Of a DNA stretch of 64,000 bases, positions 9,550 to 44,453 are shown in pieces (the stretch's first letter is position 1; each line of letters opens with the position of its first letter). The notes below the pieces were generated by a model. It did no database searches. It had not been told where the DNA came from and saw only the letters and a list, made by a program, of their open reading frames with translations. Position numbers and translations under genes: made by a program. Source of the stretch: Alphaproteobacteria bacterium. GTDB lineage: Bacteria > Pseudomonadota > Alphaproteobacteria > MPNO01 > UBA2964. The DNA is taken from contig WHUE01000002.1 in the NCBI GenBank assembly GCA_009377375.1, positions 33,350 through 97,349 on the forward strand, written 5' to 3'.

Positions 9550-9552
9550 ATC

Positions 9553-13085: not shown

Positions 13086-13099
13086 GGAGGCTCTAGGCC

Positions 13100-23484: not shown

Positions 23485-23727
23485 CCGCCGGCAGGTCGGC
23501 GGGTTCCGCCCGGCCGGCCGCCTACGTGTAACGCGATGAAAAATAATCGAAAAAATGTGTCGGGATATTTTACAGTCGCGCCGGCCGTTAACCAGCGGCG
23601 ACTCGACAAGTCTTTGAAAAACAATGAATTAACCTGTTTGGCACGGTTCTTGCTTTAAAACCTGGTGCGACCTCAAGGACTGGAGTCTTCGGGGATTTTG
23701 GGCTATGTTGATGTGGGGACTGGGACG

Positions 23728-25466: not shown

Positions 25467-25650
25467 CAGCTCTGACCGGGTTGGGGGCAAATGGCGCGCA
25501 CCGCGCGGCTGCGGCGGGCCGTATAAGGTTTCTACCCCGCCCGCCGCGCCGCCGCCACCCGCCGACGCGCATTATCGAAAAACGGGACGTTTGAGCCCGA
25601 TTTTCGGCTTTGTGCGCCCCGAGGCGGCGGATAGACTGCGACAGACCGCC

Positions 25651-25675
25651 GGGCATAACCGGGCATAACCGGAAC
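25651..25675 (+). repeat. tandem 10-bp repeat (GGGCATAACC x2 plus a partial copy) upstream of tctC
   Basis: gggcataacc gggcataacc ggaaccgg sits about 30 bp upstream of the tctC ATG at 25706 and its AGGGAGG RBS. Confidence 0.4.
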
Positions 25676-25705
25676 CGGCTTCGCACTGTCTTCAGGGAGG
25701 AACCC

Positions 25706-26743
25706 ATGACCGTCACTACATTCCGCCGCGGCGCGGCGGCAGCCGTGCTTGCCGCCGCCATGCTGACCGCGGCCCCGGCCGGGGCCGACGCCGTCTCCGA
25801 TTTCTATACCGGCAAGCAGGTCACCTGGATCGTGTCCTACGGCGCGGGCGGCAGCTACGGCCGCTACACCCAGATCGGCGCACGCCATCTCGGCAGGTTC
25901 CTGCCGGGGAATCCGGCGGTCACGGTCCAGTACATGCCCGGCGCCGGCGGCATCAAGGCGACCAACTACCTCTACAACGCCGCCCCGAAGGACGGCGGCA
26001 TGCTTGGCACCGTGACCAAGGATCTCGCCCTCGAACAGGCGCTGCGTCCGGAAAAGGCCAAGTACGACGCCCGCAAGTTCAGTTGGGTCGGCAGCTTCGC
26101 CGAGTACATCGCGGTCATCGCGGTGTGGTCGGCTTCCGGCGTCAAGACCATTGAGGACGCGAAGACGCGCAGCGTCATCATGGCGACCAGCGGCCGCGGC
26201 CATCAGGGCTCGCAGCTCGCCGTGCTGCTGAACGAATACGCCGGCACCAGGTTCAGGCTGGTGACCGGCTACCGCGGCGCGAAGGACATGAACCTGGCGA
26301 TGGAGCAGGGTGAGGCGCAGATGCGCATCAGCTCGTGGAGCGGTTTCAAGAGCCAGCAGGGCGACTGGCTGCGCGACGGCAAGGCCGCGGTGCTGGCCCA
26401 GGGCGGCAGCAAGCGCCAGCCCGACCTGCAGAACGCCTCCCTGTTCATCGACCTGGTGAAGGACCCGGAAGGCCGCAAGGTGCTCGCCATCGTGGAATCC
26501 GGCTCCAGCGTCGGCTGGCCCGCGCTGATGCCGCCCGACGTGCCCGCCGACCGGCTTGCGGCGATGCGCAAGGCGTTCGATGAGATGACGAAGGACAAGG
26601 CCTTCATCGCCGAGGTCGAGAAGAGCAAGCTGGAGGTCGCCCCGAAATCCGGCGCGGAACTCGCCAAGGTCATCGACGAGGTGCTGTCGGCTGACGAGAA
26701 GGTGCTGGCCCGCGCCCGCGCCATCGCCGGCATCAAGCCGTAG
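25706..26743 (+). CDS. tripartite tricarboxylate transporter substrate-binding protein (TctC/Bug family), orphan
   Basis: Signal peptide; conserved Bug-family signature (VSYGAGGSYGRY..PGAGGIKATNY). No adjacent tctAB genes. Confidence 0.8.
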   Translation: MTVTTFRRGAAAAVLAAAMLTAAPAGADAVSDFYTGKQVTWIVSYGAGGSYGRYTQIGARHLGRFLPGNPAVTVQYMPGAGGIKATNYLYNAAPKDGGMLGTVTKDLALEQALRPEKAKYDARKFSWVGSFAEYIAVIAVWSASGVKTIEDAKTRSVIMATSGRGHQGSQLAVLLNEYAGTRFRLVTGYRGAKDMNLAMEQGEAQMRISSWSGFKSQQGDWLRDGKAAVLAQGGSKRQPDLQNASLFIDLVKDPEGRKVLAIVESGSSVGWPALMPPDVPADRLAAMRKAFDEMTKDKAFIAEVEKSKLEVAPKSGAELAKVIDEVLSADEKVLARARAIAGIKP

Positions 26744-26827: not shown

Positions 26828-27811
26828 ATGGCCACGTCCTATCGCACCCCGCCCGAAACCATGAAGGCGGAGCTCGATGCGCTCTACGCCCGGCTCGACC
26901 CGCTTTATCTCGACCCCGGCTTCCGGGTGATGGACGTCTCCATCTGGAAGGAGCCGAAGAAGGCGCTGGAGCCCGCCATCTGGAAATGGTCGGAGGGACG
27001 CGAGGCGCTGTCGGAGCTCGCCCGCGTCATCGGCACCGAGCACGCGGAGCGCCGCAACCTGATCATGCGCAACCCGGCCGAGGGCCATGTCTACGGCACG
27101 CTGCGCACCATGATCAGCGCCTACCAGCTCATGCTGCCGGGCGAATTCGCCCGCTCGCACTGGCATTCGCCGCACGCGCTGAGGGTGATCCTCGAGGGCG
27201 CGGGCAGCTATACCGTCGTCAACGGCGTGCGCATCGACATGCATCCGGGCGACGTGGTGCTGACCCCCGGCGGCGACTGGCACTGGCACGGAGTGGACGG
27301 CAGCGCGCCCTGCGCCTGGCTCGACATCCTCGACCGGCCGCTGACCATCATGCTGGAGCCGCTGTTCCAGGACTATCATCCGGACGGGCACGAGCCGATG
27401 CGCAACGCCGACCCTGACTCGCCGCTGCTGTTTTCCTGGGCCGATACCGTGGCGCGGCTGGACGGCGCCGCGCGCGATGCCGGCGGCTGCTTCGGCGCGC
27501 GGATCGAGTTGGGCGGGGCCGCGCCCGCCCTGCCGACGCTGGCGCTGCACATGCAGCGCCTGGCGGCGGGGGAGAGGACGACGCGGTTCCGGTCCTCGGC
27601 GAACTACCTGTACTTGCCGCTGGAAGGCGAGGGGCGGTCGGTCGTCGACGGCAAGGTGCTGGACTGGGCGCGGGGCGATGTGTTCGTGGTGCCCTGCTGG
27701 CGTCCGGTGGAGCACGAGGCGTCGTCCGACGCGATCCTGTTCTCCGCCACCGACGAGCCGTTGCAGCGCGCCTGCGGCTATCTGCGCGAGGAGCGCGGCC
27801 TGCCGGGCTGA
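26828..27811 (+). CDS. bicupin protein, gentisate 1,2-dioxygenase-like
   Basis: Two cupin modules with metal-ligand-like His clusters (HWHSPHALRV.., GDWHWHG). Convergent with senA. Confidence 0.6.
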   Translation: MATSYRTPPETMKAELDALYARLDPLYLDPGFRVMDVSIWKEPKKALEPAIWKWSEGREALSELARVIGTEHAERRNLIMRNPAEGHVYGTLRTMISAYQLMLPGEFARSHWHSPHALRVILEGAGSYTVVNGVRIDMHPGDVVLTPGGDWHWHGVDGSAPCAWLDILDRPLTIMLEPLFQDYHPDGHEPMRNADPDSPLLFSWADTVARLDGAARDAGGCFGARIELGGAAPALPTLALHMQRLAAGERTTRFRSSANYLYLPLEGEGRSVVDGKVLDWARGDVFVVPCWRPVEHEASSDAILFSATDEPLQRACGYLREERGLPG

Positions 27812-27826
27812 AGGCCCCGGCGGCTC

Positions 27827-29131
27827 CTACAGGGCGCAGGTGCGGAACCCGGAGAAGATGTCCCTCCGCGTCGGCTCGAAGAAGTTGCGGTAGGTGCCGG
27901 TGACCATGCGGCTCCGCGTCGTCCAGGCACCGCCCCGCAGCACCATGGTCGACCCGAAAAGCGGCTCGGAATACTCTCTGTAATCGTCGGGCGCGAAGCC
28001 GGGGAACGGCCGGAACGTGTCCGACGTCCATTCCCAGGCGTTACCCAGCATCTGCCGGCAGCCCCAGGCGTTGTCCCCCGCCTCGTGCGCCGCCACGCTC
28101 ACGCAGCCCAGCGCGAACCCGTCGAGATTGGCGTGCGCGGCGGTGGGCGCCGCGTCTCCCCACGGGTAGCGCGTCTTGACGAGCGCGCCGTGCGCGCCGG
28201 GGCGCATGGTCGCCGCGAACTCCCACTCCGCCTCGCCCGGCAGGCGCCGGCCGGCCCAACGGCACCAGGCGTCGGCCTCGTACCAGTTGACGTGGATCGC
28301 CGGCTCGTCCTCCTCCAGCGGCATCCACCGGTCGAAGCGGCGCGCCCGCCAGCCGCCGCCGGATTCCGGCTTCCAGTAAACGGGATGCTCCGCCCCGGCC
28401 TGCCCGCGCCAGCGCCAGCCGTCCTCGGACCAGAGGGCGCGGCGCCGGTAGCCGCCGTCCTCGACGAATGCCGCGAATTCGCGGTTGGTCACCGGCGCCC
28501 GCGCCATGCGAAACGGCGCGACGGTCGCCTCATGGGTCCATTTCTCGTTGTCGAACAGGAAAGGCGCATCGGGGGCGGAGCCGAGCGGGAAGACGCCGCC
28601 CGGTATCGCGGCGTCTCCGGAAAGCCCGCCGCGCTCCGGCACATGAGACCCGCCCGACCCGTCCGCGGCGAATTCCGGCGTCGGATAGGCGAGCGTCTGG
28701 CGGGTCCAGAGGAACGCCTCGTCGTGCATGTCCTCGTGAAAGGTGGTGAACTGGTAGAGATAGCTGTCGCGCTCGTCCGCCATGCCGGCCGGCAAACGGT
28801 CGAGCAGGGTGTCCTGGACGCGCTGCATGTAGTCGAGCAGTTCGCCGAGAGGATAGAGCGGGAGGTCCCAGCGCGTCTCGTGCGCGATCGCGATCGAGTC
28901 GTAGAGCGCGTCGCCGCGTTCCAGCAACGGCGCATGGCCATGCTCGCGGCGCAGGATGAAGTGCTCGTGGAACCAGGCGACGTGACCGATCTCCCACAGC
29001 ATCGGATTGACGGCGGCGAGCTTCGGCCCGATAAGCTGATCTTGTGTCAGCCCGGCCAGAAGCTCTAACGTGCGCTGCCGCGCGCTTTCCATCATCGCGG
29101 CCAGCCGGTCTGCAGTTACGGGTGTCGTCAT
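27827..29131 (-). CDS. senA: EgtB-family sulfoxide/selenoxide synthase (DinB_2 plus FGE-sulfatase domains); by gene context selenoneine synthase SenA
   Basis: N-terminal DinB_2 metal-binding domain (WEIGHVAWFHEHF..HEDMHDE) and C-terminal FGE-like domain (NAWEWT..RGGAW). 434 aa. Placed next to a GT-like gene and selD, as in described sen clusters. Confidence 0.75.
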   Translation of the reverse strand: MTTPVTADRLAAMMESARQRTLELLAGLTQDQLIGPKLAAVNPMLWEIGHVAWFHEHFILRREHGHAPLLERGDALYDSIAIAHETRWDLPLYPLGELLDYMQRVQDTLLDRLPAGMADERDSYLYQFTTFHEDMHDEAFLWTRQTLAYPTPEFAADGSGGSHVPERGGLSGDAAIPGGVFPLGSAPDAPFLFDNEKWTHEATVAPFRMARAPVTNREFAAFVEDGGYRRRALWSEDGWRWRGQAGAEHPVYWKPESGGGWRARRFDRWMPLEEDEPAIHVNWYEADAWCRWAGRRLPGEAEWEFAATMRPGAHGALVKTRYPWGDAAPTAAHANLDGFALGCVSVAAHEAGDNAWGCRQMLGNAWEWTSDTFRPFPGFAPDDYREYSEPLFGSTMVLRGGAWTTRSRMVTGTYRNFFEPTRRDIFSGFRTCAL

Positions 29132-29154
29132 GTCCTCGCGCTCTTTGCCGTTCC

Positions 29155-30132
29155 GTGAAGATTAGTCTCGTCACCCCGGCCGGAAAACAGTCGCGCGCCG
29201 GAAATCGCACCACCGCGGTCCGCTGGGCGCGCATCCTGCGCGCCCTCGGCCAGCGCGTCGCGATCTCGGAAGCGGACGAGACCGTCGACGCCGACATGAT
29301 GGTGGCAGTTCATGCCTGGCGCAGCGCACCCTCTATCCGGGCCTTCGCCGAGCGCCATCCCTCACGGCCGCTGGTGGTGCTGCTCGCCGGCACCGACATC
29401 TACCGCTTCCAGCACAGCAATCCGAACGAGACGCTCGCCTCGATGGAGCGGGCGACGGCGCTGGTCTGCCTGCACGATCTCGTCCACCGCGACATCCCGC
29501 GCCGCTTCGCGTCGAAGCTTCGGGTCATCCGCCAGTCGGCGTCGCCGCTGAGCGCGCCGCGGGCGCCGTCGCGGCGCGCCTTCGAAGTCTGCGTCGCGGG
29601 CCATCTGCGCGAGGAGAAGGATTCGCTGCGCGCCGCGCTCGCCGCCCGCCTGGTGCCGGTGGACTCCCGCCTGCGCGTCGTCCATCTCGGCAAGGCGCAC
29701 GACGAGAGCTGGGCGCGCGCCGCGGCGGCGGAGATGGAGCGCAACCGCCGCTACCTCTGGCGCGGCGAGGTGCCCGGCTGGCAGGTGCGCCGCCAGTTCG
29801 CGCGCAGCCACGCCATGGTCATCAGCTCGGTGATGGAGGGCGGCGCGAACGTCGTCTCGGAAGCCGTTGTGGCCGGCCTGCCGGTGGTCGCATCGCATAT
29901 CGCCGGCAATGTGGGCCTGCTGGGCGACGATTATAACGGCTACTTCCCGCCGGGGGATACCGCCGCGCTGGCGGCGCTGCTGCGCCGGGCGGAGACCGAG
30001 CCCGCCTTCCTGCGCGGTCTCGCCGCGCAATGCCGCAGGCTGCAACCCCTGTTCCGGCCCGCGCGCGAGCAGGCCGCCTGGCGCGGCCTCATGGACGAGC
30101 TCGTCGGCGGCGCCTTCAGGGCCGGATGCTGA
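29155..30132 (+). CDS. senB: GT-B fold glycosyltransferase-like protein; by context selenosugar synthase SenB
   Basis: C-terminal GT1/GT4-like nucleotide-sugar binding region (HAMVISSVMEGGANVVSEAVVAGLPVVAS). Start is uncertain: the GTG at 29155 is only 23 bp from the divergent senA start; the ORF track begins at 29044 and overlaps senA. Confidence 0.6.
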   Translation: MKISLVTPAGKQSRAGNRTTAVRWARILRALGQRVAISEADETVDADMMVAVHAWRSAPSIRAFAERHPSRPLVVLLAGTDIYRFQHSNPNETLASMERATALVCLHDLVHRDIPRRFASKLRVIRQSASPLSAPRAPSRRAFEVCVAGHLREEKDSLRAALAARLVPVDSRLRVVHLGKAHDESWARAAAAEMERNRRYLWRGEVPGWQVRRQFARSHAMVISSVMEGGANVVSEAVVAGLPVVASHIAGNVGLLGDDYNGYFPPGDTAALAALLRRAETEPAFLRGLAAQCRRLQPLFRPAREQAAWRGLMDELVGGAFRAGC

Positions 30133-32383
30133 CCGGCTCCAGCCGATCGCTCCGGGGCCGGACGCATCCGATGATGGCCGCGCGGCTGTAGCCCATCGCC
30201 CGCAGCTCCTCGACACATCGCTCCGCCTCCGCCTCGGGCACGCTCGCCAGCAGCCCGCCGGCCGTCTGCGGGTCGAAGATCAGCGGGTAGCGCGGATCGC
30301 CGGCGGCCTCGGCCGGATTGGCGATCGCGCGCCGCAGCCGCAGATTCTGCGGCTGCAGCGAGCTCAGGATGCCGGCGCGCACCGTCTCCTCCGCGCCGTC
30401 GAGAAACGGAATGGCGCCGAGATCGAGCTCCACGTCCACCTCGGAGGCGCGGATCATCTCCACCAGGTGGCCGAGCAGCCCGAACCCGGTGACGTCGGTG
30501 CAGGCATGCGCGCCGTGCGCCATCAGGCATTCGGCGCCCTTGCGGTTCGACTGAACCATGGAGTCCAGCGCCGCCGCGATCCAGCGGCCCTTGGCCTTGT
30601 GGCGCATGTCGGCGGCAAACAGCGTGCCGGTGCCGAGCGGCTTGGTCAGCACCAGACGGTCGCCGGGCGCCATGCCCGCCTTGCGCATGACCCTGGCGCG
30701 GTCGATCAGCCCGTTGATCGCGAAGCCGAGCGTCAGCTCCACGCCTTCGCTGGTGTGCCCGCCGACCAGCGCCGCGCCGGCGTCGCGCAGAACCTCCATC
30801 GCGCCGGTCATCATCTGCGTCAGCGTGTCCTCGATCTTCTCCTCGATGCCGAAGGGGATGGTGGCCACCGCGAGCGCGGTCTGCGGCTCGGCGCCCATGG
30901 CGTATATGTCGCCCAGGCTGTGGTTGGCGGCGATCTTGCCGAACAGGTAGGGGTCGTCGATCATCGTGCGGAAGGAATCGACGGTGTGCACCATCGCCTT
31001 GCCCGGCGGCACCTCCACCACGGCCGCGTCGTCCGGCTCGTGCAGCCCGATCAGAACGTCCGCCCGCGGGACCGGCTCGAGGCCGCCCAGGGCGCGTCCC
31101 AGCACAGTGGCCCCCACCTTGGCGCCGCAGCCGCCGCAGCGCATCGCGATGGCGGAAATCTCCTTGATCGCCTCGGCGCTGGCGAGGCCGCGCGGCAGGG
31201 CGGCCGGCGTCTCCTCGGCCATGTCGGGCAGGTCGTTGTACTTGCGCATGAATCGCCGGTCGATCCAGTCCTTCCACAACCACACCCAGCGTCCCTTGAC
31301 CGACCAGTCCCCGCGCCCGGCGACGGCGTAGCGGTCGCCGGTGGTGACCAGGCTGAGAAACTTCTCCTGCGGACGGAACGGGCGGGGCGCGCGTCCCCGC
31401 AGCGCGCGGTCCAGGTTGCGGGCGAGCGGCTTGCCCTGGCGCACGGCGAACACGCCGGATTTGGGGCGCGGGTGGTTCACCATGGAAGCGACATCCCCCG
31501 CAGCGAACACGTCGGCATGCGAGACCGATTGCAGCGTGTCGGAGACCTTGATGAAGCCGTGCGCGTCCACCTCCAGCCCGGCTTCGCCCGGCCAGGACGG
31601 TGCGCCGGCCGCGGTGACCCAGAGTATCTCGTCGGCCTCGATTCCATCGCCGCTCTCCGTGCGCAGCCGGTTGCCGCTGACCTCGACCACGGGCTCGCCC
31701 GCGTGCACGCTGACGCCGCGCGCCCACAGGACCTGCTCGAAGGCGCGCCGCGCGCGCGCATTGTGGGTCGGCAGGATTTCGGGCGAGTCGCTGAACAGGT
31801 CGAACGCGATGTCGTCGGCGGTGCGGCCGGCCTCGCGGCGCAGCGTCGCCAGCCGATACTGGATGGCGAGCAGGATTTCGACCCCGCCGGCGCCGGCGCC
31901 GACGACGGCGATGCGCATCGGCCCGTCGTGGTGCAGGCTGCGCTCGGCCAGGGCCTCCCAGCGATCGAGAAAGCGGTTGATCGGCTTCACCGGGACGGCG
32001 GCCTCGGTCGCACCGGGTACGTCCGACGTCCGCGGGGCGGAACCTGTATTGATCGATAGCACGTCGTAGGGCACGGGCGGGCGGTTGTCGCAGAGAACGC
32101 GCTTGCCCGCCAGGTCGAGCGCCGTCACCTCGCTGTGATAGAAGCGCGCGCCGGCGAAGCGTGCGAGCGCGCCGAGATCGATATGGGCGTCGTCGAAGCT
32201 GTAATGCCCCGCCACGTAGCCGGGCAGCATGCCCGAATAGGGCGTGTGCACGTCGCGGCAGATCAGCGTGAGCCGGACGCCCGGCACCGGCTTCATGCCG
32301 AAACGTTTGAGAACGGCGACATGGCTGTGCCCGCCGCCGGCGAGAACGAGGTCCTTAACGATGGGAGTATTGTCGTTTTTCAT
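30116..32383 (-). CDS. selD: fusion protein: N-terminal FAD/NAD(P)-binding pyridine nucleotide-disulfide oxidoreductase domain plus C-terminal selenide, water dikinase SelD (SenC role)
   Basis: N-terminus has Rossmann GxGxxG motifs (LVLAGGGHSHVAV.., IAVVGAGAGGVE). The C-terminal half is SelD, with the active-site loop MRCGGCGAKVG (a Cys-type, not Sec-type, enzyme) and the AIR-synthase-like fold. 755 aa. Overlaps the 3' end of senB (convergent). Confidence 0.85.
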   Translation of the reverse strand: MKNDNTPIVKDLVLAGGGHSHVAVLKRFGMKPVPGVRLTLICRDVHTPYSGMLPGYVAGHYSFDDAHIDLGALARFAGARFYHSEVTALDLAGKRVLCDNRPPVPYDVLSINTGSAPRTSDVPGATEAAVPVKPINRFLDRWEALAERSLHHDGPMRIAVVGAGAGGVEILLAIQYRLATLRREAGRTADDIAFDLFSDSPEILPTHNARARRAFEQVLWARGVSVHAGEPVVEVSGNRLRTESGDGIEADEILWVTAAGAPSWPGEAGLEVDAHGFIKVSDTLQSVSHADVFAAGDVASMVNHPRPKSGVFAVRQGKPLARNLDRALRGRAPRPFRPQEKFLSLVTTGDRYAVAGRGDWSVKGRWVWLWKDWIDRRFMRKYNDLPDMAEETPAALPRGLASAEAIKEISAIAMRCGGCGAKVGATVLGRALGGLEPVPRADVLIGLHEPDDAAVVEVPPGKAMVHTVDSFRTMIDDPYLFGKIAANHSLGDIYAMGAEPQTALAVATIPFGIEEKIEDTLTQMMTGAMEVLRDAGAALVGGHTSEGVELTLGFAINGLIDRARVMRKAGMAPGDRLVLTKPLGTGTLFAADMRHKAKGRWIAAALDSMVQSNRKGAECLMAHGAHACTDVTGFGLLGHLVEMIRASEVDVELDLGAIPFLDGAEETVRAGILSSLQPQNLRLRRAIANPAEAAGDPRYPLIFDPQTAGGLLASVPEAEAERCVEELRAMGYSRAAIIGCVRPRSDRLEPVSIRP

Positions 32384-32387
32384 GGCC

Positions 32388-33875
32388 TCAACGGTGTTTC
32401 AGCGTCGTCTGCAGGCGGAGCCGCGCGCGGATGGCGCGGGAGATCGCGTCGACGCATATGTTCAGCATGGCGGTGATCAGGATGAGGAACAGCGCGCGGT
32501 CGAAACGCAAATCGGCAAAGGCACTGTCCACGTAAAAGCCCAGCGTCGCGATTCCGAGTATGCCGAGTATCGCCGTCTCGCGCAGGATCACCTCCCAGCG
32601 GTAGAATAGCAGAGCCATCATCGGCCGGTAGATGCGGGGCGAGACCTCGTATACGTAGCGGTCGATTCCGCGCGACGCATCGGGACGCAGCTTCACGGTC
32701 TCGGTGAACCGGCCGATCAGGTGGCCGATAATGGCCCCGTTGTGCAGCGACAGCGCCACTATGGCCGGCAGCATCGACGGCCCCCAAAGCTGCAGCAGGA
32801 CGAAGGCAAGAATATATTCCGGCGTCGAGCGGACAACGACGAGGAAGACGTGACCGGCCCCCCGCGCCCACCGGCCGAGCAGCAGGGGCGAGACCAGCGG
32901 GAAGAAGAACATCGTGAGCACGCCCGTCGCGACCAGGGCGACCATGGTGAGCTGAATCGTCGCGGCGGCCCCGGGCAGGGCCTGCTCGAAGAGCATCAGA
33001 TGCAGCCAGTCGCCGAGCGCCGCCAGCGTGTCGCCCCCCGGCGCGCGCAGCGGATAAGGAACGATGTCATGGGTGAAGAAGCGGAGCATATTGGCAGCGG
33101 AGACGGTGAGCCCCCAGGGCAGGATCGCCGCCGCCGCGACCAGCCAGACCGGCAGCAGCGGCTTCCGCATCCACAGCCGCATGCTGGCGATGACGACGTA
33201 GAACAGGATCAGCAGCGCCGAGACCTCGGAATAGCGCCCCTGGCTGAACGACGATTCGAGATGGAACCCGAGCGTCGGCAGCCCCACGAATCCGAGCACG
33301 GCGCTCGAGCGCAGCCCGCATTCGAGCCGGTACATCGAATAGGTCCGGAAATGCGCCCACGCATCCGGCAGGCGGGCGAACAGGAAGGTGGAGATGAGTC
33401 CGCTGCCGAGCGGGACGGCGCGCAGCGGAGCGGGGTCCGCCTCCTCGAGTATTTCCGCATAGACCTTGGCGATGATGCCGGCATAGGGGATGCCGATCGC
33501 GAGGATGCCGGTCAGCGGCGACAGGCCGAAGATCTGCAGGAAGATGAGCGCCCAGAACAGCTCGTGGATCGCCCGCACGAAGGCGCAGCCGGTGCGCACG
33601 ATCCGGCTGAAGAACAGCAGCGCGAGACCGAAGCCGAGCACGTTGCCGAACGCGACGCCGAGCAGCGCGAAGGCGAGCGTGTAGGCAAGCGCGCTCCCCA
33701 GATTGTCGGTGGCGTAGAAATCGGGCGTGACGACGCCCGCGAGCAGGCGCACCAGTTCCTGGTACGGATTGACCGTGGTGACGGCCAGATCGGCGAACAG
33801 CGCGCAGACCAGCGCGACCGCGACGAACGCGAGCGTCGTGCGGGCCAGCGGCGAGGCTTCGCGCAGGCTGGCCAT
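32388..33875 (-). CDS. fused tandem PhnE-like ABC transporter permease (two permease modules in one chain)
   Basis: 495 aa with about 12 TM helices and two PhnE-like permease repeats. Its stop lies 4 nt from the senC start and its ATG overlaps the upstream ATPase stop (TGATG). Confidence 0.75.
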   Translation of the reverse strand: MASLREASPLARTTLAFVAVALVCALFADLAVTTVNPYQELVRLLAGVVTPDFYATDNLGSALAYTLAFALLGVAFGNVLGFGLALLFFSRIVRTGCAFVRAIHELFWALIFLQIFGLSPLTGILAIGIPYAGIIAKVYAEILEEADPAPLRAVPLGSGLISTFLFARLPDAWAHFRTYSMYRLECGLRSSAVLGFVGLPTLGFHLESSFSQGRYSEVSALLILFYVVIASMRLWMRKPLLPVWLVAAAAILPWGLTVSAANMLRFFTHDIVPYPLRAPGGDTLAALGDWLHLMLFEQALPGAAATIQLTMVALVATGVLTMFFFPLVSPLLLGRWARGAGHVFLVVVRSTPEYILAFVLLQLWGPSMLPAIVALSLHNGAIIGHLIGRFTETVKLRPDASRGIDRYVYEVSPRIYRPMMALLFYRWEVILRETAILGILGIATLGFYVDSAFADLRFDRALFLILITAMLNICVDAISRAIRARLRLQTTLKHR

Positions 33876-34537
33876 CAGCCGGCCGGTCGGTACAGGTGAT
33901 CGAGGTCGTCCGGTTTCATGCCCGCGGCCGGCTCGTCGAGGACGATCCGCCCGTTCCTCAGCCCGACGAGCCGGTCGGCGAAGGCGATCGCCAGCGCCCG
34001 GTCGTGCATCGCGAGGACGACCGTGCGCTTTTCGCCGTTCATCGTCTCCAGAATCTCGCGCGCCTGGTGTTCGTCCACGGCGGAAACCGGCTCGTCGGCG
34101 ATGAGGATTTCGCCGGGGTGATAGAGCGCGCGGCCGACTGCCGTGCGCTGCTGCTGGCCTCCCGAGAGCTCGCCGACCGCGGCGAACAGCTTGTCCTCGA
34201 GGCGGAGTTGGGAGAGCACGGCCCCGACCTCCCTGACCTCCGCCGGGGCCGGGCGGACGAGATTGCGCAGGTTTCGCCACGTCGAATGCCGGTGCAGCCG
34301 TCCCATATAGACGTTGTGGAAGACGGTCAGCGACTGGACGAGGCCGAGTTCCTGCGGCACCAGCGCCGCACCGTTCCGGCAACGCTCGTAGGCGAGGCGC
34401 AGGAGCGTCGACTTGCCCGCCCCGCTCTCGCCGACGACCGCTACCTTCTCGCCGGGCTCGATCCTGAGCGTGATCCCCTCGAGGATCGCCGTGCCGCCGT
34501 AGCCGGCGGTCTCGTCGCGGAAGTCGATCAGCGCCAT
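33875..34537 (-). CDS. PhnC-like ABC transporter ATP-binding protein
   Basis: Walker A GESGAGKST, signature LSGGQQQR, Walker B LIADEP. Translationally coupled on both sides. Confidence 0.8.
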   Translation of the reverse strand: MALIDFRDETAGYGGTAILEGITLRIEPGEKVAVVGESGAGKSTLLRLAYERCRNGAALVPQELGLVQSLTVFHNVYMGRLHRHSTWRNLRNLVRPAPAEVREVGAVLSQLRLEDKLFAAVGELSGGQQQRTAVGRALYHPGEILIADEPVSAVDEHQAREILETMNGEKRTVVLAMHDRALAIAFADRLVGLRNGRIVLDEPAAGMKPDDLDHLYRPAG

Positions 34538-35424
34538 CAGTCGATCAGGCCGAGCGACCGCGCCGTCTTCCGGATCGGCTCGTAGTCCGAGTTCTCGGCC
34601 GGGATGAAAGCGGAACGGGGGAATGAGTCGAGCAGGTCGGGATCCTTCATCGAAAGCAGCGCAGCCTTTACCCTTTGCGCGAAGCCGTTGCCGTAGCGCT
34701 CGTCCACGTCGCCCCGGATGGTCCACTGATAGTCGGGATAGGGCGGGGTGCGCCAGATCACGCGTACGCGCTTCGGATCGATCTTGCCGTCCTTCAGCTC
34801 CCGCTCCCACACCGCGAAATTGACCGCGCCCACCTGGTACGCCCCGGTCTGGACCAGCGCGAGCGTTCGCGAGTGATCGCCGCTGAAGCCTACCCGGCTG
34901 AAGATTTCCTCCGGCGCCTTGCCGAAGGCTTCGCGGATATGGAACTCGGGCATCAGCCGGCCCGAGGTCGATCCCTTGGAGCCGAAGGTGAAGGTCTTGC
35001 CCGCCATCTCCTTCGGCAAGCTCTTCGATTCGGAGAGCCCGGTGCTCTCATGGGCGATGAAGTAGGTCACGAAGGCGCGATCCTCCGCACCCTGTGCGAG
35101 CGCCCGGGAACCCGGCACCATGGCGCGGGCCCGCACCCCGGAGAGCCCGCCGAACCAGGCGAGCTGAACCTGGCCGTTGCGGAACGCCGTCACCGCCGCG
35201 GCGTAGGACTTGACCGGGATGTAGCGCGTCTCGACGCCGAGCGTCCGCGCGAGGTAGCGCGCGACCTTGTCGAACCGCGTGCGCAGCTGGCTCGCGTCCT
35301 CATCGGGAATGGCCGTGAAGACAAACGGTTCCGCCTGCGCCGCGCCCGCTCCGGGCAGGAGCCCCGACAGCGCCCCGAGGACGGCGTATATCGCCGCGAC
35401 CGAACGAATTCTCATGGTCATCAT
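34537..35424 (-). CDS. PhnD/SsuA-like periplasmic substrate-binding protein (phosphonate/phosphite-type)
   Basis: Signal peptide (MRIRSVAAIYAVLGALSGLLPGAGAAQA), then a PhnD-family fold (FTAIPDED..YIPVKSYAA..FGSKGSTSG). First gene of the SBP-ATPase-permease-senC string. Confidence 0.75.
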   Translation of the reverse strand: MMTMRIRSVAAIYAVLGALSGLLPGAGAAQAEPFVFTAIPDEDASQLRTRFDKVARYLARTLGVETRYIPVKSYAAAVTAFRNGQVQLAWFGGLSGVRARAMVPGSRALAQGAEDRAFVTYFIAHESTGLSESKSLPKEMAGKTFTFGSKGSTSGRLMPEFHIREAFGKAPEEIFSRVGFSGDHSRTLALVQTGAYQVGAVNFAVWERELKDGKIDPKRVRVIWRTPPYPDYQWTIRGDVDERYGNGFAQRVKAALLSMKDPDLLDSFPRSAFIPAENSDYEPIRKTARSLGLID

Positions 35425-36125
35425 GGTGCACCTTTCCTGTCCGACAGCCGGATGTCCCCCGGGCCCGCGCAAAGGCGGCTCGCCGGCGAATTCCTGCAAA
35501 CCGGCACGACGGATGACATCCCGTGACCCGAACGTAGCGCCACAGGAGGAAACCCGCAAAGGGAGGGAGCACAGCCGTGGACGGCGCGGCAGGCGGCTTC
35601 GACGTTTTACGCGAACCCGGCAACCGGGTCATGGCGGCGGTGGGCGCCGCCGCTGCGCCCGCGCCGGCCCTCAGCGTCGTTCGGGCGACGGGCATAGCCG
35701 CATCGGCACCGGCTTCTGGAAGCCGGGAAGGCACACCGGCCGCATCTCGCATTGGGCCGGGGCGGCGGGTATGGCGGCGCCGGTTTCCGTCGCATCCGGG
35801 CCTTCGCCGTCGGCGGCATCGGCAAGCGCGGTGCGGCATTCTTCCGAGATTTCCGTCTCGGAGACGCGGAGCGCTTCGGCGATCGTGGGATCGTAGCGGC
35901 CGTTCTGAGCGGAGGATTCCGGGCCGCCGGCCGCGTATTGCCGAGTTTCGGCGCATCCCCCGACCCGTCGATCAGCCCGGCGCCCGCCATCAGGGCCAGC
36001 GGGAGACAGCCGGCGGTCGTGCCGGCGCACAGCAGCATCGCGAAGATTGCACGGAGGCCGGGCGCGACCGGCGGCGGGTGGCGCACCAGACCGGATGTCG
36101 CGCCCGGCGGCATCTTTCCGCGCCG

Positions 36126-36689
36126 TCAGCGGAGATGGCTGAGCCCGCGCCGTTCCGTCATCTCGCGCCAGATCGCGGCCATGTCGGGCTGCATGAGCCG
36201 CTTCCGGGCCCAGGGGAAGAAGGTCTGTTCCTCCCAGTCCATATGCTGGCGGACCAGCTCTTCGGCACGGATGAGATTGACCGAAAACGTGGCCGGCATG
36301 ATGGGAATGACGCCTCCCATCAGAGCGCACAGCCTCTCCTCGATATCCGTCACCGCGTGCCGTATGAGGTCGTGATTCTGCCCCAGCGTCGTCTGCATGC
36401 GGCGCGCCGTCTCCGTCGCCCCCTGGCGGGCCAGCAGCCGCGGCATCAGGGAGTATTCCTCGTCATCCACGCGGAGCGGCCATTCCTCCTTGAAGAACGA
36501 GAGCACGGAATGGGCGTAGCACTCCCTGCCGCGTTGCCAGAGATCGTCGGCCAGAATGGACATCATCCCCGCCACGATGCGAACTCTCTCCTGCTCCTGA
36601 AGCAGCAGATCTATCGGCTCCCTGCTCGTCGCCGCCGAGCGGCGGGAAGAGGTGCCGTCTTCGAAGCATTCCTGCTGGCCCGAAATCAT
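36126..36689 (-). CDS. hemerythrin-like (HHE cation-binding) domain protein
   Basis: Repeated H-x3-E motifs (HSVLSFFKEE, HAVTDIEE, HMDWEE). 187 aa. Confidence 0.5.
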   Translation of the reverse strand: MISGQQECFEDGTSSRRSAATSREPIDLLLQEQERVRIVAGMMSILADDLWQRGRECYAHSVLSFFKEEWPLRVDDEEYSLMPRLLARQGATETARRMQTTLGQNHDLIRHAVTDIEERLCALMGGVIPIMPATFSVNLIRAEELVRQHMDWEEQTFFPWARKRLMQPDMAAIWREMTERRGLSHLR

Positions 36690-36899
36690 TTTGCCCCCCG
36701 TCTTTGCATGGCTCCGCGTCCCGGCGGAGCGTGCGCCGACTGTGGCATGACCTCACCATACAGAGAAGACTTCAAAAGAATGCATATATAGATATTTCTG
36801 ACTATAACCTATCCGTTGGTAGTAGTACTGAACCACAATATTAATAATAAATGACGTTATATACGATCACCGTGCCTGATTTCATGACGGGGCACGGAT

Positions 36900-37256
36900 A
36901 TGCGCAAGCTACTCCTCAGCGTCTGGATCGCAGTGGCCGTCGGCGCCGCCGGCGTCGTTCCGGATACTGCCGGCAACAGCGCGGCGTCCGGTTTCTCGAT
37001 GCTGCGGGCCGACGACCGCGGCCGGGTCCTTGTCGAGAGCCGCTGTCTCGGGTGCCATGCCGACGCCGATGTCGTCGCGCTTGCGCCCGGCGCAAGAGCC
37101 CCCGGTCTCGCCGAGATCGCGGAGCGGTACCGGAACCGTCCGGCGGAGATCGTGGATATCCTGCTGAACCGGCATCCGCCGATGCCGCGGTCTCTGCTGC
37201 GCGACGACGAGATCAACGACATCGTCGCCTATATCGGCACGCTGGACGGGTCCTGA
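36900..37256 (+). CDS. small secreted class-I c-type cytochrome
   Basis: Signal peptide, one CxxCH heme-binding motif (CLGCH) and a distal Met ligand region (HPPMP). 118 aa. AT-rich sequence lies immediately upstream. Confidence 0.6.
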   Translation: MRKLLLSVWIAVAVGAAGVVPDTAGNSAASGFSMLRADDRGRVLVESRCLGCHADADVVALAPGARAPGLAEIAERYRNRPAEIVDILLNRHPPMPRSLLRDDEINDIVAYIGTLDGS

Positions 37257-37327
37257 CGGCGCGATGGCGGCGGGTCGCCCCGCCGCCATCGATCACCGAT
37301 CAACCATCGAATCGGGCAGCCATCAAA

Positions 37328-37843
37328 TCAGGAAGCGTCGCTGTGACCGCTGTAGAGCTGCGATATCCAGCCGTCGATCGGCGACGACGCGGGGGACGAA
37401 TACGAAACCAGAGTCCCGCCGCTGTCCGGCAGGCCGTATTCGAGGCCGATCCCGGCGCCGAGGCCGACACCCCCGATGGAGAAGCCGATTCCCGCGCCCC
37501 CGCCGAACACCGGGAAGCTGCCGCCGGAACGGGCCACGCCCGCGCTGGCGCCGGGCAGGAACGGCGACGCCTGTTGCCGCGCGAAAGCCTGGTTGGACGG
37601 GCCGCGTTCAACCTCGAGCAGGGCGCCCGTCGCGTCGCGCAACAGGTTTTCCGGCCGCCGGTTGAACAGCTTCTCCTCGATGATCGCCTGCCGGTAGCCG
37701 AGGCTCATTCCGACCCCGCCGCCGCCTCGACGGCTGAACTCGAACGGCTTGTTGGAGATCAGCTGCGCGGCCGCGTCGCCGGCAATGCCGCTCAGAGCCG
37801 CCGCAAGCACGAGGGCGCTGAGAAAAGATCCTCTGGATGACAT
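37328..37843 (-). CDS. secreted glycine-rich hypothetical protein
   Basis: Signal peptide (LSALVLAAALSGIAGDAAAQ), then Gly-rich low-complexity sequence (GGGAGIGFSIGGVGLGAGIG). Confidence 0.4.
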   Translation of the reverse strand: MSSRGSFLSALVLAAALSGIAGDAAAQLISNKPFEFSRRGGGGVGMSLGYRQAIIEEKLFNRRPENLLRDATGALLEVERGPSNQAFARQQASPFLPGASAGVARSGGSFPVFGGGAGIGFSIGGVGLGAGIGLEYGLPDSGGTLVSYSSPASSPIDGWISQLYSGHSDAS

Positions 37844-38055
37844 CTGCTAAAATCCTTCCCGCCCATCGTCCGCGCATACAGGGAAGGCGAGCCGCCGGCT
37901 TTCTGCATGGCGCGCTCCTGCATGGCACGGGCGGTCGTGGGCTGATCGACCGGGCCCGTTCGTTGCCGGCTCGCTGGCAATATTCATGAACTGGGAACCC
38001 GCTGCGCAACCAGCAAGCCGGGTAATCCCTAATCGCCGCGCCGCCGGCTTCTTTT

Positions 38056-38742
38056 TCAGCGCCGGTCCGGCTTTCTCCCGGCCACGCGGTTCCATGCGCG
38101 CCTGAGGAAGGAGAGAAAGGAGCCAACGGGACCTTCGACGGGCCTGGCGGGCGCCGGACGGTGCGCGCCCTGCGGCACGCGATCGCTCGCCCCCGGTTGC
38201 GGCCGTTCGACCTGATCGGCGTGCGCATATATCGGGGCCGCGCCGTTCCCGCGATTGCGGTCTGTCCCCCGGGCCTCTGGCGCCGGGCGGGACAGCAGCT
38301 GTTCGACCAGTTCGCGCGGAAAGCTCCTCACCCCGCTTTTCGCCGACCGGACGATCTCGAGGGCCATGCCCCGATGCAGGTCCTGCAGCAGCACCGCGTC
38401 CACGCCTGGGAAATGCGTCCGGACGAGCTCTATCTCGTCCGAGGACGCGACGAGCACGACCGTGATGTCCGCAGAGAGACGCGCCCATCTCCGCCGGTGG
38501 TGCTCTGTCATGTCGGACAGGGAGCATCCGCTTATCAGCAGAACGGGATCGCCGGCGCTCGCCCCGAGAGCCCGGAAGATGTCCTGCACCCCGTCTGCCG
38601 TCCGAATCCGCCCCTGCCAGTCCGGGGCCAGCTCGGACACGATCCAACTGCGGATGGCGCCAGGTGCGACCGCCACGACCAGCAGCCTGCCGGGGGGCGT
38701 TTCGGGATCGGGCTGACGCGGGTTCGATGGTCCGGATGACAT
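38056..38742 (-). CDS. hypothetical protein with a degenerate receiver-like (CheY-fold?) core
   Basis: Alternating hydrophobic beta-strand/helix pattern (LLVVAVAPG.., VLLISGCSLSD, VVLVASSDE) without canonical phospho-acceptor residues, and a Pro/Arg-rich tail. Weak support. Confidence 0.3.
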   Translation of the reverse strand: MSSGPSNPRQPDPETPPGRLLVVAVAPGAIRSWIVSELAPDWQGRIRTADGVQDIFRALGASAGDPVLLISGCSLSDMTEHHRRRWARLSADITVVLVASSDEIELVRTHFPGVDAVLLQDLHRGMALEIVRSAKSGVRSFPRELVEQLLSRPAPEARGTDRNRGNGAAPIYAHADQVERPQPGASDRVPQGAHRPAPARPVEGPVGSFLSFLRRAWNRVAGRKPDRR

Positions 38743-39149
38743 GGCGGTCTACTGCGGGCGGGTGTCGCCTGAGCCTCTCTTGTCGCTTTTCCGGCTTGTC
38801 GCTTTTCCGGCGCATCCGGATCGGTGGCGCCGGACCGGAGCCGTGGCGTGGCGGGGCGATCAGCCGCGCGCCCGGTCCCGGATCATACCTTCGCCCGGGT
38901 CATCCGCTCCCGCCTATTATTGATTACACCCAAGGTGCTCATGTCCACCATAAATAGACGGAGTAAATAAGTGAGATTCATAAATATTCACAGGGGATTA
39001 ATCCGAATTTATGCGAGACGAGTACTAAAGGGCGCTTAGCCTGCCGCCCGTTCCCGTATACACCTGTTGCCGTAACTCTCTTCGGGGGGGGCGGGACGTC
39101 CGTCCCCCGGTTTTTCCGGCCGAGCGCCGGACCAGAAGGAGGAATTGTC

Positions 39150-39641
39150 ATGAAGTACACGTTCTTTGCCGCCGCGGCGGCACTGCTTGCGCTGGGTCCC
39201 GCGATCGAGGGGAACAGCGGACGGCTTTTCGGTGTCGGCGTTGCCTCCGCCCAGCAGATGGGAAGCCAGCCCTGGGGATTCTCGGGACGAAGCCGGAGCC
39301 TGGCCGCCCAGTTCCAGTTCCAGCGCGACCTCGTCAACGGTTCGGGTGCGGTGGACGGAATGGCGGCACTGCAGCAATACGTCACCCAGTACAACTCCAG
39401 CTCGACCTCGATCGGCAATTTGAACGAGGTGACGCAGGTTCTGTCCGGCGGGTCCACGGGCTCGGTGGGCCAGACCACCGACCAGACCTCGCAGGGCAAC
39501 CAGGGATCCTCCGCCACCACCGATACGACCGTCAACAACACCGCGGTTTCGGTCGAGGGCGGCGGTACTGCGCAGGGCACAGCCGCCCAGAACCAGACCG
39601 CCGATCAGTCGCAGAACGGCGAACAACCGGCCGCCCAGTAA
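39150..39641 (+). CDS. secreted Ser/Thr/Gln/Asn-rich low-complexity protein (hypothetical)
   Basis: Strong RBS (AGAAGGAGGAATTGTC-ATG), a signal peptide, and a T/S/Q/N-rich C-terminal half. Flanked by AT-rich DNA. Confidence 0.55.
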   Translation: MKYTFFAAAAALLALGPAIEGNSGRLFGVGVASAQQMGSQPWGFSGRSRSLAAQFQFQRDLVNGSGAVDGMAALQQYVTQYNSSSTSIGNLNEVTQVLSGGSTGSVGQTTDQTSQGNQGSSATTDTTVNNTAVSVEGGGTAQGTAAQNQTADQSQNGEQPAAQ

Positions 39642-39693
39642 TCCCGTCTGTTCCGTCCGGGACAGACGGATCGAGACCATTCCCTGTCTGGAG

Positions 39694-40066
39694 TTGAAAA
39701 TGTCGGTATCGAGCGATGTCATGCCCGCGAGGCTGTCCGTCTCCCCAACCCGCCGAACTCAGCGGGACGCCATCCGCAGGAGGCGGACCTGCGCAGCGGT
39801 CGTTCTCGCCTTTGCAGCCGTCCTCGGCCGATCCGGCGAAGGCATTCGAGTGGTACCGCCGCGCCGCCGTCGGCGGCGAAGCAAGGGCGCAATACAATAT
39901 CGGCCTTCTGTATCTGAGCGGAAAGGGCGTGGTCGCCGATCCGGTCCAGGCCGTCAAGTGGCTGGTTCTCGCTGCCTCCACAGCGGCGGGATCCCGACAT
40001 CAGGCGAAAGGCGCAGGCCACGCTGAACGGGATTTCACCCGCGCTGAAATCCGGCGATTTCCATGA
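39694..40066 (+). pseudogene. degraded Sel1-repeat (TPR-like) protein gene, frameshifted
   Basis: A signal-peptide-like N-terminus is in frame 39694 (RRRRTCAAVVLAFAAVLG) while Sel1 repeat units are in frame 39716 (AKAFEWYRRAAVGGEARAQYNIGLLYLSGKGV..AVKWLVLAA). The repeats decay after about 1.5 units. Confidence 0.3.
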
Positions 40067-40379
40067 AGGAGCCCAGGCCGCAAGGCTCTGGCTGGTGCGC
40101 CGGCAATGGACGAGCCGCTCGGCCGGGCGGAGCGGGGGCTGAGTCCGACTGCCCGCCGGCGGATCGCCGCGTCGCGGCCGTCGACTGTTCGGGGCGACGC
40201 GGAGGAAAGCGGGCGGGACGCCGATCCGGTCCTGTCCGCGCGAGGGGCGGCGCCTGAAGACCGGGCCGGCGGCCCCGACCCATAGCCCGTCCGGCTTCGG
40301 TGCTGTCCCTCGCACGCCGCGCCGCATTGCGGGCGGCGCGGTCTTGTTCCGTTTTCCCCGTTCCGTCCGCGCGGCAAGT

Positions 40380-40959
40380 ACAACCGTTGGTGATGCCGCC
40401 TGTCCACCATTTTTATGACAGGATTTTCTTGACAATCCTGATCTTTAAGTCTGCCTATAATATATATAATAATTTTTAATAAATATATACTCGAACATTT
40501 ATGTAATAAGTCATTTTAATCGAAGCATATCATGCTGTGACACAGATTTATCACAGACAAGAACCTTCCTCCTCCCCCATATGTGACCTAATGTAAGGCG
40601 GCTCGTGACATCTCGTGACATATCGTAAGTCCGATGGGCGGTATGGCGCGACTGGCTGCGGCCTCCCCCGTCGGAAGGTCAGGCGGATCTGTAAGAAGGA
40701 TTAGTCCCGATAGAGACATTAATCATTAAGCTTAGAGGAATACCCATTTTCCGTTCTCTTTAATAATCATCTTTAAGGTTAAACAATTATTTGTAGGGAC
40801 GCGTATTTTGGCTCTGTAAGAATTTGTGGTTAATCCTTCATGCTTGGTCCAATTTTGTAATGAGGCGCAAATCGGTGGTCGGCATGTTAAGTCTGCCGAA
40901 TCACGGGGCAAGACTCGGCGAATCCGATGATTCGTAAGAGTCGTATCAGAGGGTTGATC
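40380..40959. other. about 580-bp AT-rich intergenic tract (under ~40% GC in a ~68% GC genome) upstream of the LuxR-type regulator and the polysaccharide locus
   Basis: Runs such as taatatatataataatttttaataaatatatac; contains the 10-bp tandem repeat CTCGTGACAT x2 (40602-40621) and TGTGACACAG..TATCACAGAC (40536-40559). Confidence 0.6.
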
Positions 40960-41631
40960 ATGGCTATCCAGGAAGACTGCGCGCTGCGCGCAATGATTGT
41001 AGACCATAACCGCCTGTACCGGGCCGGTCTGAAGCTGACGCTGGAATCCGCGAATGTCAGGGTGGTTGCCGAAGGAGACGATCTCAAGGCTCTCATGGCC
41101 GGCTCGGATGAGGCCGGCGGCGACATCCTGCTGCTGAAGCTGCCGAGGGCGGCCGCCGTGGCGGAGGCGCTGGGAAACGCAAGACAGGCGTTTCCCGCCG
41201 CCAAGCTGGTGGTGATTGCGGATGCCAATCTGAATTCCGATGCGATGGTGACGGCGATTCAGGCGGGCGCGGACGGCGTCCTGCTGTCCGAGCTCTCTCC
41301 GGATGTGTTCCTGCAGTCGCTGCGTCTGGTCCGTCTGGGCGAGAAGGTCCTGCCTGCGCAGCTCGCCCGGATGCTCATCGGGGGCGACGCCCGTGTCTCG
41401 CATATGCCGAGCCAGATGCGTCAGCTGGGACTGTCGGCGCGGGAGATGGAAATCCTCCGGCTTCTGGTCGACGGCAGTTCGAACAAGGGCATTGCACGAC
41501 GCCTCGACATCGCGGAGGCAACCGTGAAGGTGCATGTCAAGGCCGTGCTGCGGAAGATCCAGGTGACGAACAGGACTCAGGCCGCGGTCTGGGCGCTCAA
41601 CCACGGGGTGGCCTGCGAGCAGGAGGCCTGA
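40960..41631 (+). CDS. LuxR/FixJ/NarL-family response regulator (receiver plus C-terminal LuxR HTH)
   Basis: C-terminal LuxR-type HTH (LSAREMEILRLLVDGSSNKGIARRLDIAEATVKVHVKAVLRKI) and an N-terminal receiver-like domain with an atypical acidic pocket. ATG at 40960 after a GAGGG RBS. Confidence 0.75.
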   Translation: MAIQEDCALRAMIVDHNRLYRAGLKLTLESANVRVVAEGDDLKALMAGSDEAGGDILLLKLPRAAAVAEALGNARQAFPAAKLVVIADANLNSDAMVTAIQAGADGVLLSELSPDVFLQSLRLVRLGEKVLPAQLARMLIGGDARVSHMPSQMRQLGLSAREMEILRLLVDGSSNKGIARRLDIAEATVKVHVKAVLRKIQVTNRTQAAVWALNHGVACEQEA

Positions 41632-41901
41632 GCGAATGGCCAGCGTTGCATGTCGTAGCGCGGGCGCGGCGATGTCTGACGCCGCGCGCCATACACGCCG
41701 GCCGGGGATGTCGCTCCGGCCGGCAGTGCGCTGTGACTGCCTCCCCGCCGGGGTCTGGGACGTCGCCCGCGTGCCGGAACCGCGTCGCCGCCGCCCCGAT
41801 ATGTTCTCAGAATGGTCACAGCCGCCATCGGCGCGCGCGGCTAGTGTTTGCGCCGACCGCCGCTCTTTCCCGTCGGGCACTCAAACACCGCGAAGGCGCA
41901 G

Positions 41902-43239: not shown

Positions 43240-43250
43240 CGCGACATCCG

Positions 43251-44264: not shown

Positions 44265-44347
44265 GGAACAGATCCCGCTGCCTCCCTTTAGTCGCAATCT
44301 AGGAGGTAGTCGATTTTAAGCTCCGGGCCAACCGGAATCCACGTGGC

Positions 44348-44453
44348 CCCTGAATGCTCACAGCAGATCACAGTTCGGCCACGGGTCCTTTCCGGACACC
44401 GCGCAGACCCTGAACGCTCACAGCTATCACAGTATGGCCACGGGCGCCTGTCG
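44348..44453 (+). promoter_or_regulatory. two about 46-bp imperfect direct repeats, each with paired (C)TCACAG elements, in the divergent GT2/rfbF promoter region
   Basis: cctgaatgCTCACAGcagaTCACAGttcggccacgggtcctttccgg (44348-44395) and cctgaacgCTCACAGctaTCACAGtatggccacgggcgcctgtcgg (44408-44453), spaced about 60 bp apart. Confidence 0.5.

Follow-up and report, generated by a model that had tools for sequence, protein, structure and literature searches.

The window examined here, a 64,000-nucleotide stretch of an Alphaproteobacteria bacterium (contig WHUE01000002.1), contains a three-gene ATP-binding cassette (ABC) transporter unit on its minus strand, directly ahead of senC and close to senB and senA (Table 1). 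This unit, encoding a substrate-binding protein (SBP), an ATPase, and a fused permease, was studied as a putative importer of a selenium oxyanion. An earlier note on this DNA had claimed that the three genes are joined by TGATG overlaps and followed by a 4-nucleotide gap before senC, and this description was exact to the base. As read from the sequence, the SBP gene begins with an ATG at 35424, just after aggaaagg, and ends with a TGA at 34539 to 34537. The ATG of the ATPase gene (34537 to 34535) reuses the A of this stop codon (ctgaTGgcg), producing a TGATG with a 1-nucleotide overlap. A second TGATG with a 1-nucleotide overlap connects the ATPase stop codon (33877 to 33875) to the permease ATG at 33875, and the permease stop codon (32390 to 32388) is separated by 4 nucleotides (ggcc) from the senC ATG at 32383. 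On the basis of domain and motif matches, the SBP, ATPase, and permease open reading frames (ORFs) are genuine genes rather than chance ORFs.

No terminator-like sites were found within positions 30116 to 35424 and no sigma-70 promoters were found inside the operon, although promoter and terminator counts were the same as in shuffled sequences, so these absences are weak evidence. An E-value scan of positions 27000 to 38000 against Rfam for riboswitches or other RNA elements returned only a meaningless 11.9-bit match to a long noncoding RNA. A megablast search of positions 30116 to 35424 against PLSDB gave no match, i.e., no sign of plasmid origin.

The senC product matched TIGR03169 (Nterm_to_SelD, 498.5 bits) and TIGR00476 (selD, 307.6 bits); its match to TIGR04369 ("fusion_not_SelD," 487 bits) was under the cutoff of 700. 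It contained the Pfam domains Pyr_redox_2, AIRS, and AIRS_C, with a CxxC motif (RCGGCGAK) in the SelD active-site loop. Ndh-SelD fusions with CxxC were described in 2008 (PMC2398784, PMC2432076), and the Ndh domain was proposed as the reductant of a selenium compound, generating the SelD substrate (PMC2432076). The 3' ends of senC and senB are convergent and overlap by 17 nucleotides (30116 to 30132), which means that senB must be served by a promoter on the opposite strand from senC. Convergent, overlapping senC and senB genes recurred in related loci (e.g., L031, 13755 to 13780, and L040, 15358 to 15383). The position at which senB starts is uncertain, as its reading frame is already open at 29044 and residue 40 is the first in the family match.

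Table 1. Coordinates of the transporter genes, the sen genes, and other features of the window
Feature	Coordinates	Strand	Description and evidence
SBP gene	34537..35424	(-)	295 amino acids; PhnD/PtxB fold; TIGR04553 family
ABC ATPase gene	33875..34537	(-)	220 amino acids; PhnC-like, without extra C-terminal domain
Fused double permease gene	32388..33875	(-)	495 amino acids; two PhnE-like transmembrane modules
senC	30116..32383	(-)	755 amino acids; Ndh-like pyridine-nucleotide-disulfide oxidoreductase fused to SelD
senB	29155..30132	(+)	Selenosugar synthase; TIGR04348 SenB, 412.3 bits (cutoff 300)
senA	27827..29131	(-)	Selenoneine synthase (EgtB-like); NF041186 SenA, 499.2 bits (cutoff 420)
Hemerythrin HHE-domain protein	36126-36689	(-)	PF01814, 35.9 bits
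Cytochrome-c-like ORF	36900-37256		
Gentisate-dioxygenase-like cupin gene	26828-27811	Opposite to TauE/SafE gene	
Weak TctC-like gene	25610-26743	Opposite to TauE/SafE gene	Below Pfam threshold
TauE/SafE-family anion permease ("sulfite exporter")	24699-25490	(-)	PF01925, 68.8 bits; 2.3 kb beyond senA
ORF resembling exosortase-dependent surface protein XDP1	23665-24606	(+)	PEP-CTERM-like end; NF041927, 120.4 bits (cutoff 125)

Families and folds of the transporter proteins

The SBP matched NCBIfam TIGR04553 (ABC_peri_selen) at 395.4 bits (E = 1e-118; match 2 to 266 of 266; cutoff, 250), a family named "putative selenate ABC transporter substrate-binding protein" and classed as a "hypothetical equivalog." It also matched the Pfam family of phosphonate-binding type periplasmic proteins (PF12974, 203.6 bits), and its score against the carbon-phosphorus (C-P)-lyase-type PhnD equivalog TIGR03431 (128.9 bits) was far under the cutoff of 261.1. 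Residues 1 to 31 resemble a Sec signal peptide that ends at AQA, followed by EP. Homologues carry the TIGR04553 name at NCBI and the name "phosphonate transport system substrate-binding protein" at the Joint Genome Institute (JGI). The nearest solved structure was 7S6G (E = 1e-68, 45% identity), PhnD1 of Synechococcus MITS9220 with phosphate, with 40% identity to 5LQ5 and 5LQ8, PhnD1 of Prochlorococcus MIT9301 with phosphite or methylphosphonate. An AlphaFold2 model of the SBP (predicted local distance difference test score, 88) had 7S6G as its top Foldseek match (template modeling score, 0.89; root mean square deviation, 1.9 Å) and also matched 5LQ5, PtxB, HtxB, and PhnD, all with the two-lobe PhnD fold. 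Within the phosphonate/phosphite-binding family, the SBP is a member of the PhnD1/TIGR04553 branch.

The ATPase matched PF00005 (76.6 bits), with PhnC TIGR02315 as its best NCBIfam match (156.6 bits, under the cutoff of 266), and contained Walker A (GESGAGKS), LSGGQ, Walker B (ILIADE), and H-loop motifs. The permease matched PhnE TIGR01097 over two stretches (210.3 bits; cutoff, 216.7), and its halves, each with hydrophobic segments, aligned in register (29% identity, E = 2e-13), which bears out the claim of two fused PhnE modules. With a signal-peptide-like SBP N terminus, the ATPase catalytic motifs, and a duplicated permease, the features of a type I ABC importer are complete. The unit probably is such a binding-protein-dependent importer, in which a periplasmic SBP would act with a homodimer of the ATPase and a single fused permease that forms a pseudo-heterodimer; the direction of transport is suggested by this architecture.

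Gene neighborhoods of relatives and of the PhnD1 clade

The 80 closest SBP loci (64 to 77% identity to the window SBP) were collected from Genome Taxonomy Database (GTDB) contigs, with one genome per species and flanks of up to 10 kb per locus; 48 loci had enough flank for selenium genes to be counted. They came from Alpha- and Gammaproteobacteria, including Marinobacter, Marinobacterium, Litchfieldella, Motiliproteus, and many marine metagenome-assembled genomes (MAGs), as well as from Nitrospinaceae and Acidimicrobiia MAGs. Carriers available in culture include Marinobacter profundi (L050), Marinobacterium lutimaris (L069), and Litchfieldella anticariensis (L066). Genes for the SBP, ATPase, and fused permease were present in 80, 77, and 70 loci, respectively, and thus occurred together wherever the DNA extended far enough. 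The permease was fused in 70 of 70 loci (median length, 505 amino acids), so fusion is the norm of the subfamily and not, as had been supposed, an unusual trait.

At least one selenium gene (coding for SelD, MnmH, SenA, or SenB) flanked the transporter genes in 40 of the 48 loci. Among the 53 loci with at least 4.6 kb downstream of the SBP gene, the oxidoreductase-SelD fusion was present in 36 and plain SelD was present in 6. The fusion gene lay downstream on the same strand in 30 loci, about 50 nucleotides or less from the permease gene in all but 3 of them. Intergenic spacing was 10 nucleotides or less from the SBP to the ATPase gene in 58 of 76 loci and from the ATPase to the permease gene in 49 of 69, and 30 nucleotides or less from the permease to the SelD fusion gene in 22 of 27. 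The gene mnmH (tRNA 2-selenouridine synthase; NF008751, 524 bits) was immediately upstream of the SBP gene in 10 loci, and egtD followed senA in several. Co-occurrence among relatives, a check proposed in the earlier note, thus revealed linkage, and comparative genomics strongly supports the proposal of one operon that would supply selenium to SelD, with selenium uptake as its putative function.

Three architectures recurred. The arrangement of the window, SBP-ATPase-permease-SelD fusion-senB (reverse)-senA, is followed by egtD in some loci and ends with senA in the window itself. The order selD-mnmH-SBP-ATPase-permease was found, free of sen genes, in Marinobacterium and related Gammaproteobacteria (L054, L060, L065, L069, L073, and L077; about 7400 to 13100). 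The order mnmH-SBP-ATPase-permease-SelD fusion was found in three loci. L056, L075, and L076, and separately L071, are also among the loci with selD-mnmH or mnmH contexts. The dedication to sen genes and selenoneine suggested earlier did not hold, since the transporter genes are also coupled to plain selD and mnmH, and the transporter appears to track selenium utilization in general, not selenoneine alone. In one locus, from a MAG (L001, 9890 to 15281), senB and senA came immediately after the transporter genes, and selD was absent from the 10 kb on each side. An ORF of 756 amino acids upstream of the transporter genes in L001 (2183 to 4453), which was suspected of encoding a divergent SelD fusion, instead encodes a xanthine-dehydrogenase-like molybdenum hydroxylase subunit.

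A control sample consisted of 80 marine-metagenome loci (L083 to L162) of the picocyanobacterial PhnD1 clade, with SBPs 70 to 100% identical to 7S6G. SelD, MnmH, SenA, SenB, and EgtD were found in the flanks of none of these loci (0 of 80), which validates the specificity of the result among the closest relatives. The crystallized PhnD1 proteins nevertheless exceed the TIGR04553 cutoff of 250 (7S6G, 334 bits; 5LQ5, 297 bits), and the cutoff therefore covers two clades that differ in gene context. A selenium role for the whole TIGR04553 family was judged less likely on account of the PhnD1 loci. Either the "selenate" family name has been over-propagated to the PhnD1 clade, or selenite is worth considering for the "paradoxical" PhnD1 ligand. 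Identities of the partner proteins to their cyanobacterial counterparts were only 30 to 38% for the ATPase and 25 to 38% for the permease.

Binding pocket and candidate cargo

Selenite shares the pyramidal shape of phosphite, a lone pair taking the place of the P-H, and is largely HSeO3- around pH 7 to 8; selenate is tetrahedral and, like sulfate, fully ionized. An Asp acceptor in PstS is known to discriminate against sulfate. In the PhnD1 structures 5LQ5 and 7S6G, the ligand is contacted by Y44, S124-T125-S126, H156, D203, and the cap residue Y204, with D11 and N174 as cap anchors. The equivalent residues of the window SBP (Y74, S152-T153-S154, H184, D231, cap Y232, D41, and N202) were invariant in all 80 relatives, and the pocket is of the Phe88/Asp203 type of PhnD1, represented here by F118 and D231. 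The PhnD1 pocket is fully buried, with a tight Tyr cap over three sub-sites for oxygen that are arranged trigonally; its Asp carboxylate is a hydrogen bond acceptor that needs a protonated ligand oxygen. Phosphite is the best PhnD1 ligand (0.67 to 2.8 µM in Synechococcus and sub-micromolar in Prochlorococcus); phosphate binds about 10-fold less tightly, methylphosphonate is the weakest of the three, and sulfate is specifically excluded from the 7S6G site (Shah et al.). Both PhnD1 papers describe the physiological role as puzzling, given genes that show no regulation by P, strains that fail to grow on phosphite, and the absence of phosphite/phosphonate catabolic genes. Assays in these papers were made with phosphorus compounds only, and selenium compounds are mentioned in neither.

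Second-shell residues differed between the selenium-linked and PhnD1 clades in every sequence examined. Residues of the selenium-linked and PhnD1 clades, respectively, were K72-S73 and S42-N43 before the ligand Tyr, S95 and T65 in contact with a buried water, K150-G151 and E122-S123 before the STS loop, S185 and D157 after the ligand His, and Q233 and H205 after the cap Tyr. Relative to the PhnD1 clade, the selenium-linked clade has lost two acidic residues near the anion site. These differences are plausible candidate determinants of specificity.

Considered together, the unit is probably a selenium-oxyanion importer that is co-transcribed and translationally coupled with the Ndh-SelD fusion and feeds selenophosphate synthesis. 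In the periplasm, the SBP would capture a small selenium oxyanion of the XO3 type, with hydrogen selenite (HSeO3-) as the best fit, and the transporter would pump it into the cytoplasm. Reduction to the selenide level, either of the oxyanion itself or of its thiol adduct, would then fall to the oxidoreductase domain on SelD, after which the SelD domain would produce selenophosphate and SenB and SenA would turn this into selenoneine. The oxidoreductase domain of senC, of the flavoprotein disulfide-reductase type, may be suited to selenite or thiol-selenium adducts. The likeness of selenite to phosphite put forward in the earlier note fits the conserved phosphite-type pocket, on structural analogy. 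Because the pocket is of this type, sulfate is excluded from the homologous site, and the operon carries no gene for a selenate reductase or for sulfate activation, hydrogen selenite is suggested as the most likely cargo, rather than the selenate of the family name.

Selenate (SeO4 2-) is among the main forms of dissolved selenium in oxic water, and it could instead be imported and reduced elsewhere in the cell, although this seems unlikely. The 7S6G pocket accommodates a tetrahedral anion, phosphate, and the idea agrees with the curated name of TIGR04553 and with the wording "putative selenate transporter" of Kayrouz et al. 2022. However, the D231 acceptor needs a protonated oxygen, which selenate, like sulfate, does not have at neutral pH, so hydrogen selenite is favored over selenate on this ground as well as by the sulfate exclusion and the gene content of the operon already described. 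The at least 10-fold weaker binding of tetrahedral phosphate than of phosphite by relatives points the same way.

A similarly low probability was given to a phosphite/phosphate transporter like PhnD1CE, adjacent to selD for some reason other than selenium supply. Phosphite, phosphate, and methylphosphonate are ligands of the closest solved homologues, the first shell around the ligand is the same as in PhnD1, residue for residue, and JGI names the homologues as phosphonate transport SBPs. Such a transporter would leave unexplained why selenium genes of three independent kinds flank so many of the related loci and none of the PhnD1 loci; moreover, the transporter genes in the window have no neighboring ptxD, C-P lyase, or pho-type genes, SelD requires ATP rather than imported phosphorus, the second shell differs systematically from that of PhnD1, and the partner proteins are at most 38% identical to the cyanobacterial ones. 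Still less probable is a broad importer of small oxyanions, or of another selenium species such as a thiol-selenium adduct or organoselenium oxyanion, that was recruited to selenium loci for scavenging. Binding of several ligands is on record for PhnD1 relatives, binders of arsenite, arsenate, hypophosphite, and glycerol-phosphate have arisen within the fold family, and M. maripaludis uses several selenium species, with no single transporter proved essential there. Against a broad specificity, the capped and buried pocket shuts out ligands much larger than methylphosphonate, and the strict invariance of the binding residues in the relatives argues for one defined ligand.

Several points weigh against selenium-oxyanion import for SelD. 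The only characterized TIGR04553 members (7S6G and 5LQ5) are binders of phosphite, phosphate, and methylphosphonate, with a first shell identical to that of the window SBP, and the database name of the family is selenate, not selenite. Se-O bonds are longer than P-O bonds, so a fit in a phosphite-sized pocket would not be guaranteed. Eight of the 48 related loci had no selenium gene within 10 kb, and transcription of the SBP, ATPase, and permease genes and senC as an operon is presumed from their arrangement. A tblastn search found neither egtD nor mnmH in the whole window, so the hercynine for SenA must be made or obtained elsewhere. Literature searches returned no binding, uptake, or expression data with any selenium species for TIGR04553-type transporters, and no experimental selenium-binding study of PhnD-type proteins was found.

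A more specific version of selenium import was entertained tentatively, in which the selenium-linked proteobacterial TIGR04553 clade would be a dedicated high-affinity HSeO3- importer and its second-shell changes would set selectivity over phosphite and phosphate. The changes that may be responsible are E to K and S to G before the STS loop, D to S after the ligand His, and H to Q after the cap Tyr. In its boldest form, which shares the same tentative standing, the "paradoxical" phosphite affinity of the abundant picocyanobacterial PhnD1 would reflect the same pyramidal-oxyanion chemistry, and PhnD1 would also carry selenite.

Known systems and the remainder of the window

Selenium transport by this family is already present in curated annotation and in the literature, and the window is a further instance, not a discovery. 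The statement in the earlier note that the role was undocumented for the transporter family is contradicted by the TIGR04553 name, by the NCBI names of homologues, and by Kayrouz et al. 2022, all of which already propose it. That paper, on the discovery of selenoneine biosynthesis, reports a putative selenate transporter gene beside many sen clusters, and from its NCBI name we infer that this transporter belongs to the TIGR04553 family. The window SBP is another member from which nothing essential differs, and its position beside senC, senB, and senA is as published. Peng et al. 2016 reported an ABC ATPase among the neighbors of orphan selD. Reviews and an experimental study from 2024 state that a specific or high-affinity transporter for selenium has yet to be identified, and recent papers say the same of a dedicated bacterial one. 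The unit described here is the best genomic candidate for this missing transporter, and crystal structures of 40 to 45% identical proteins allow direct binding tests. The present analysis suggests selenite as a better guess than selenate for TIGR04553; if selenite is the ligand, the name "selenate" in the database would need correcting.

The fold and first-shell ligand residues of the window SBP are common to PhnD1C1E1, whose permease is likewise a long fusion (aligned over as many as 460 amino acids) and whose SBP is also over the TIGR04553 cutoff; PhnD1C1E1 differs in having tesA as its reported neighbor, in the lack of selenium genes at its loci, and in its distinct second shell. PtxABC and HtxBCDE (PtxB 5O2J and HtxB 5ME4 of Pseudomonas stutzeri; PtxB 5JVB of Trichodesmium) share the fold and a capped small-anion pocket, but PtxB and HtxB are only 22 to 27% identical to the window SBP and use Tyr100 where it has the Asp acceptor, and ptxD, for phosphite dehydrogenase, accompanies these systems, whereas no such dehydrogenase is adjacent in the window. 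Escherichia coli PhnCDE (PhnD, 3P7I) shares PF12974 and the organization of SBP, ATPase, and PhnE-type permease. E. coli PhnE is a single-module permease. E. coli PhnD is 18 to 20% identical to the window SBP and has a much larger pocket, for 2-aminoethylphosphonate, and E. coli PhnCDE is linked to C-P lyase, while the neighbors in the window are senC and a hemerythrin-domain gene, with no C-P lyase genes. AioX and ArrX, which bind arsenite and arsenate, respectively, have the same fold as the window SBP in Foldseek comparisons (17 to 20% identity), so the PhnD-like fold is adaptable to metalloid oxyanions; AioX and ArrX are sensors coupled to two-component systems, not transporter subunits. 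Judged from its encoded proteins, the unit is predicted to work like PhnD1C1E1 or PtxABC-type importers, and it is neither a C-P-lyase-type PhnCDE nor PtxABC itself.

Between the SBP start and the next minus-strand gene, about 700 bp (within 35425 to 36689) contained no convincing gene, and this gap had no Rfam match and no sigma-70-like promoter. The G+C content was 0.61 to 0.66 across positions 36001 to 46000, compared to 0.68 to 0.72 in most of the window, and ORFs at 37328 to 37843, 38056 to 38742, and 39150 to 39641 had no family match; this region next to the operon may be foreign or fast-evolving DNA. On the other side of the sen genes, the XDP1-like ORF appears to be unrelated to the transporter operon, and the TauE/SafE-family permease has a possible role in sulfur or selenium oxyanion handling.

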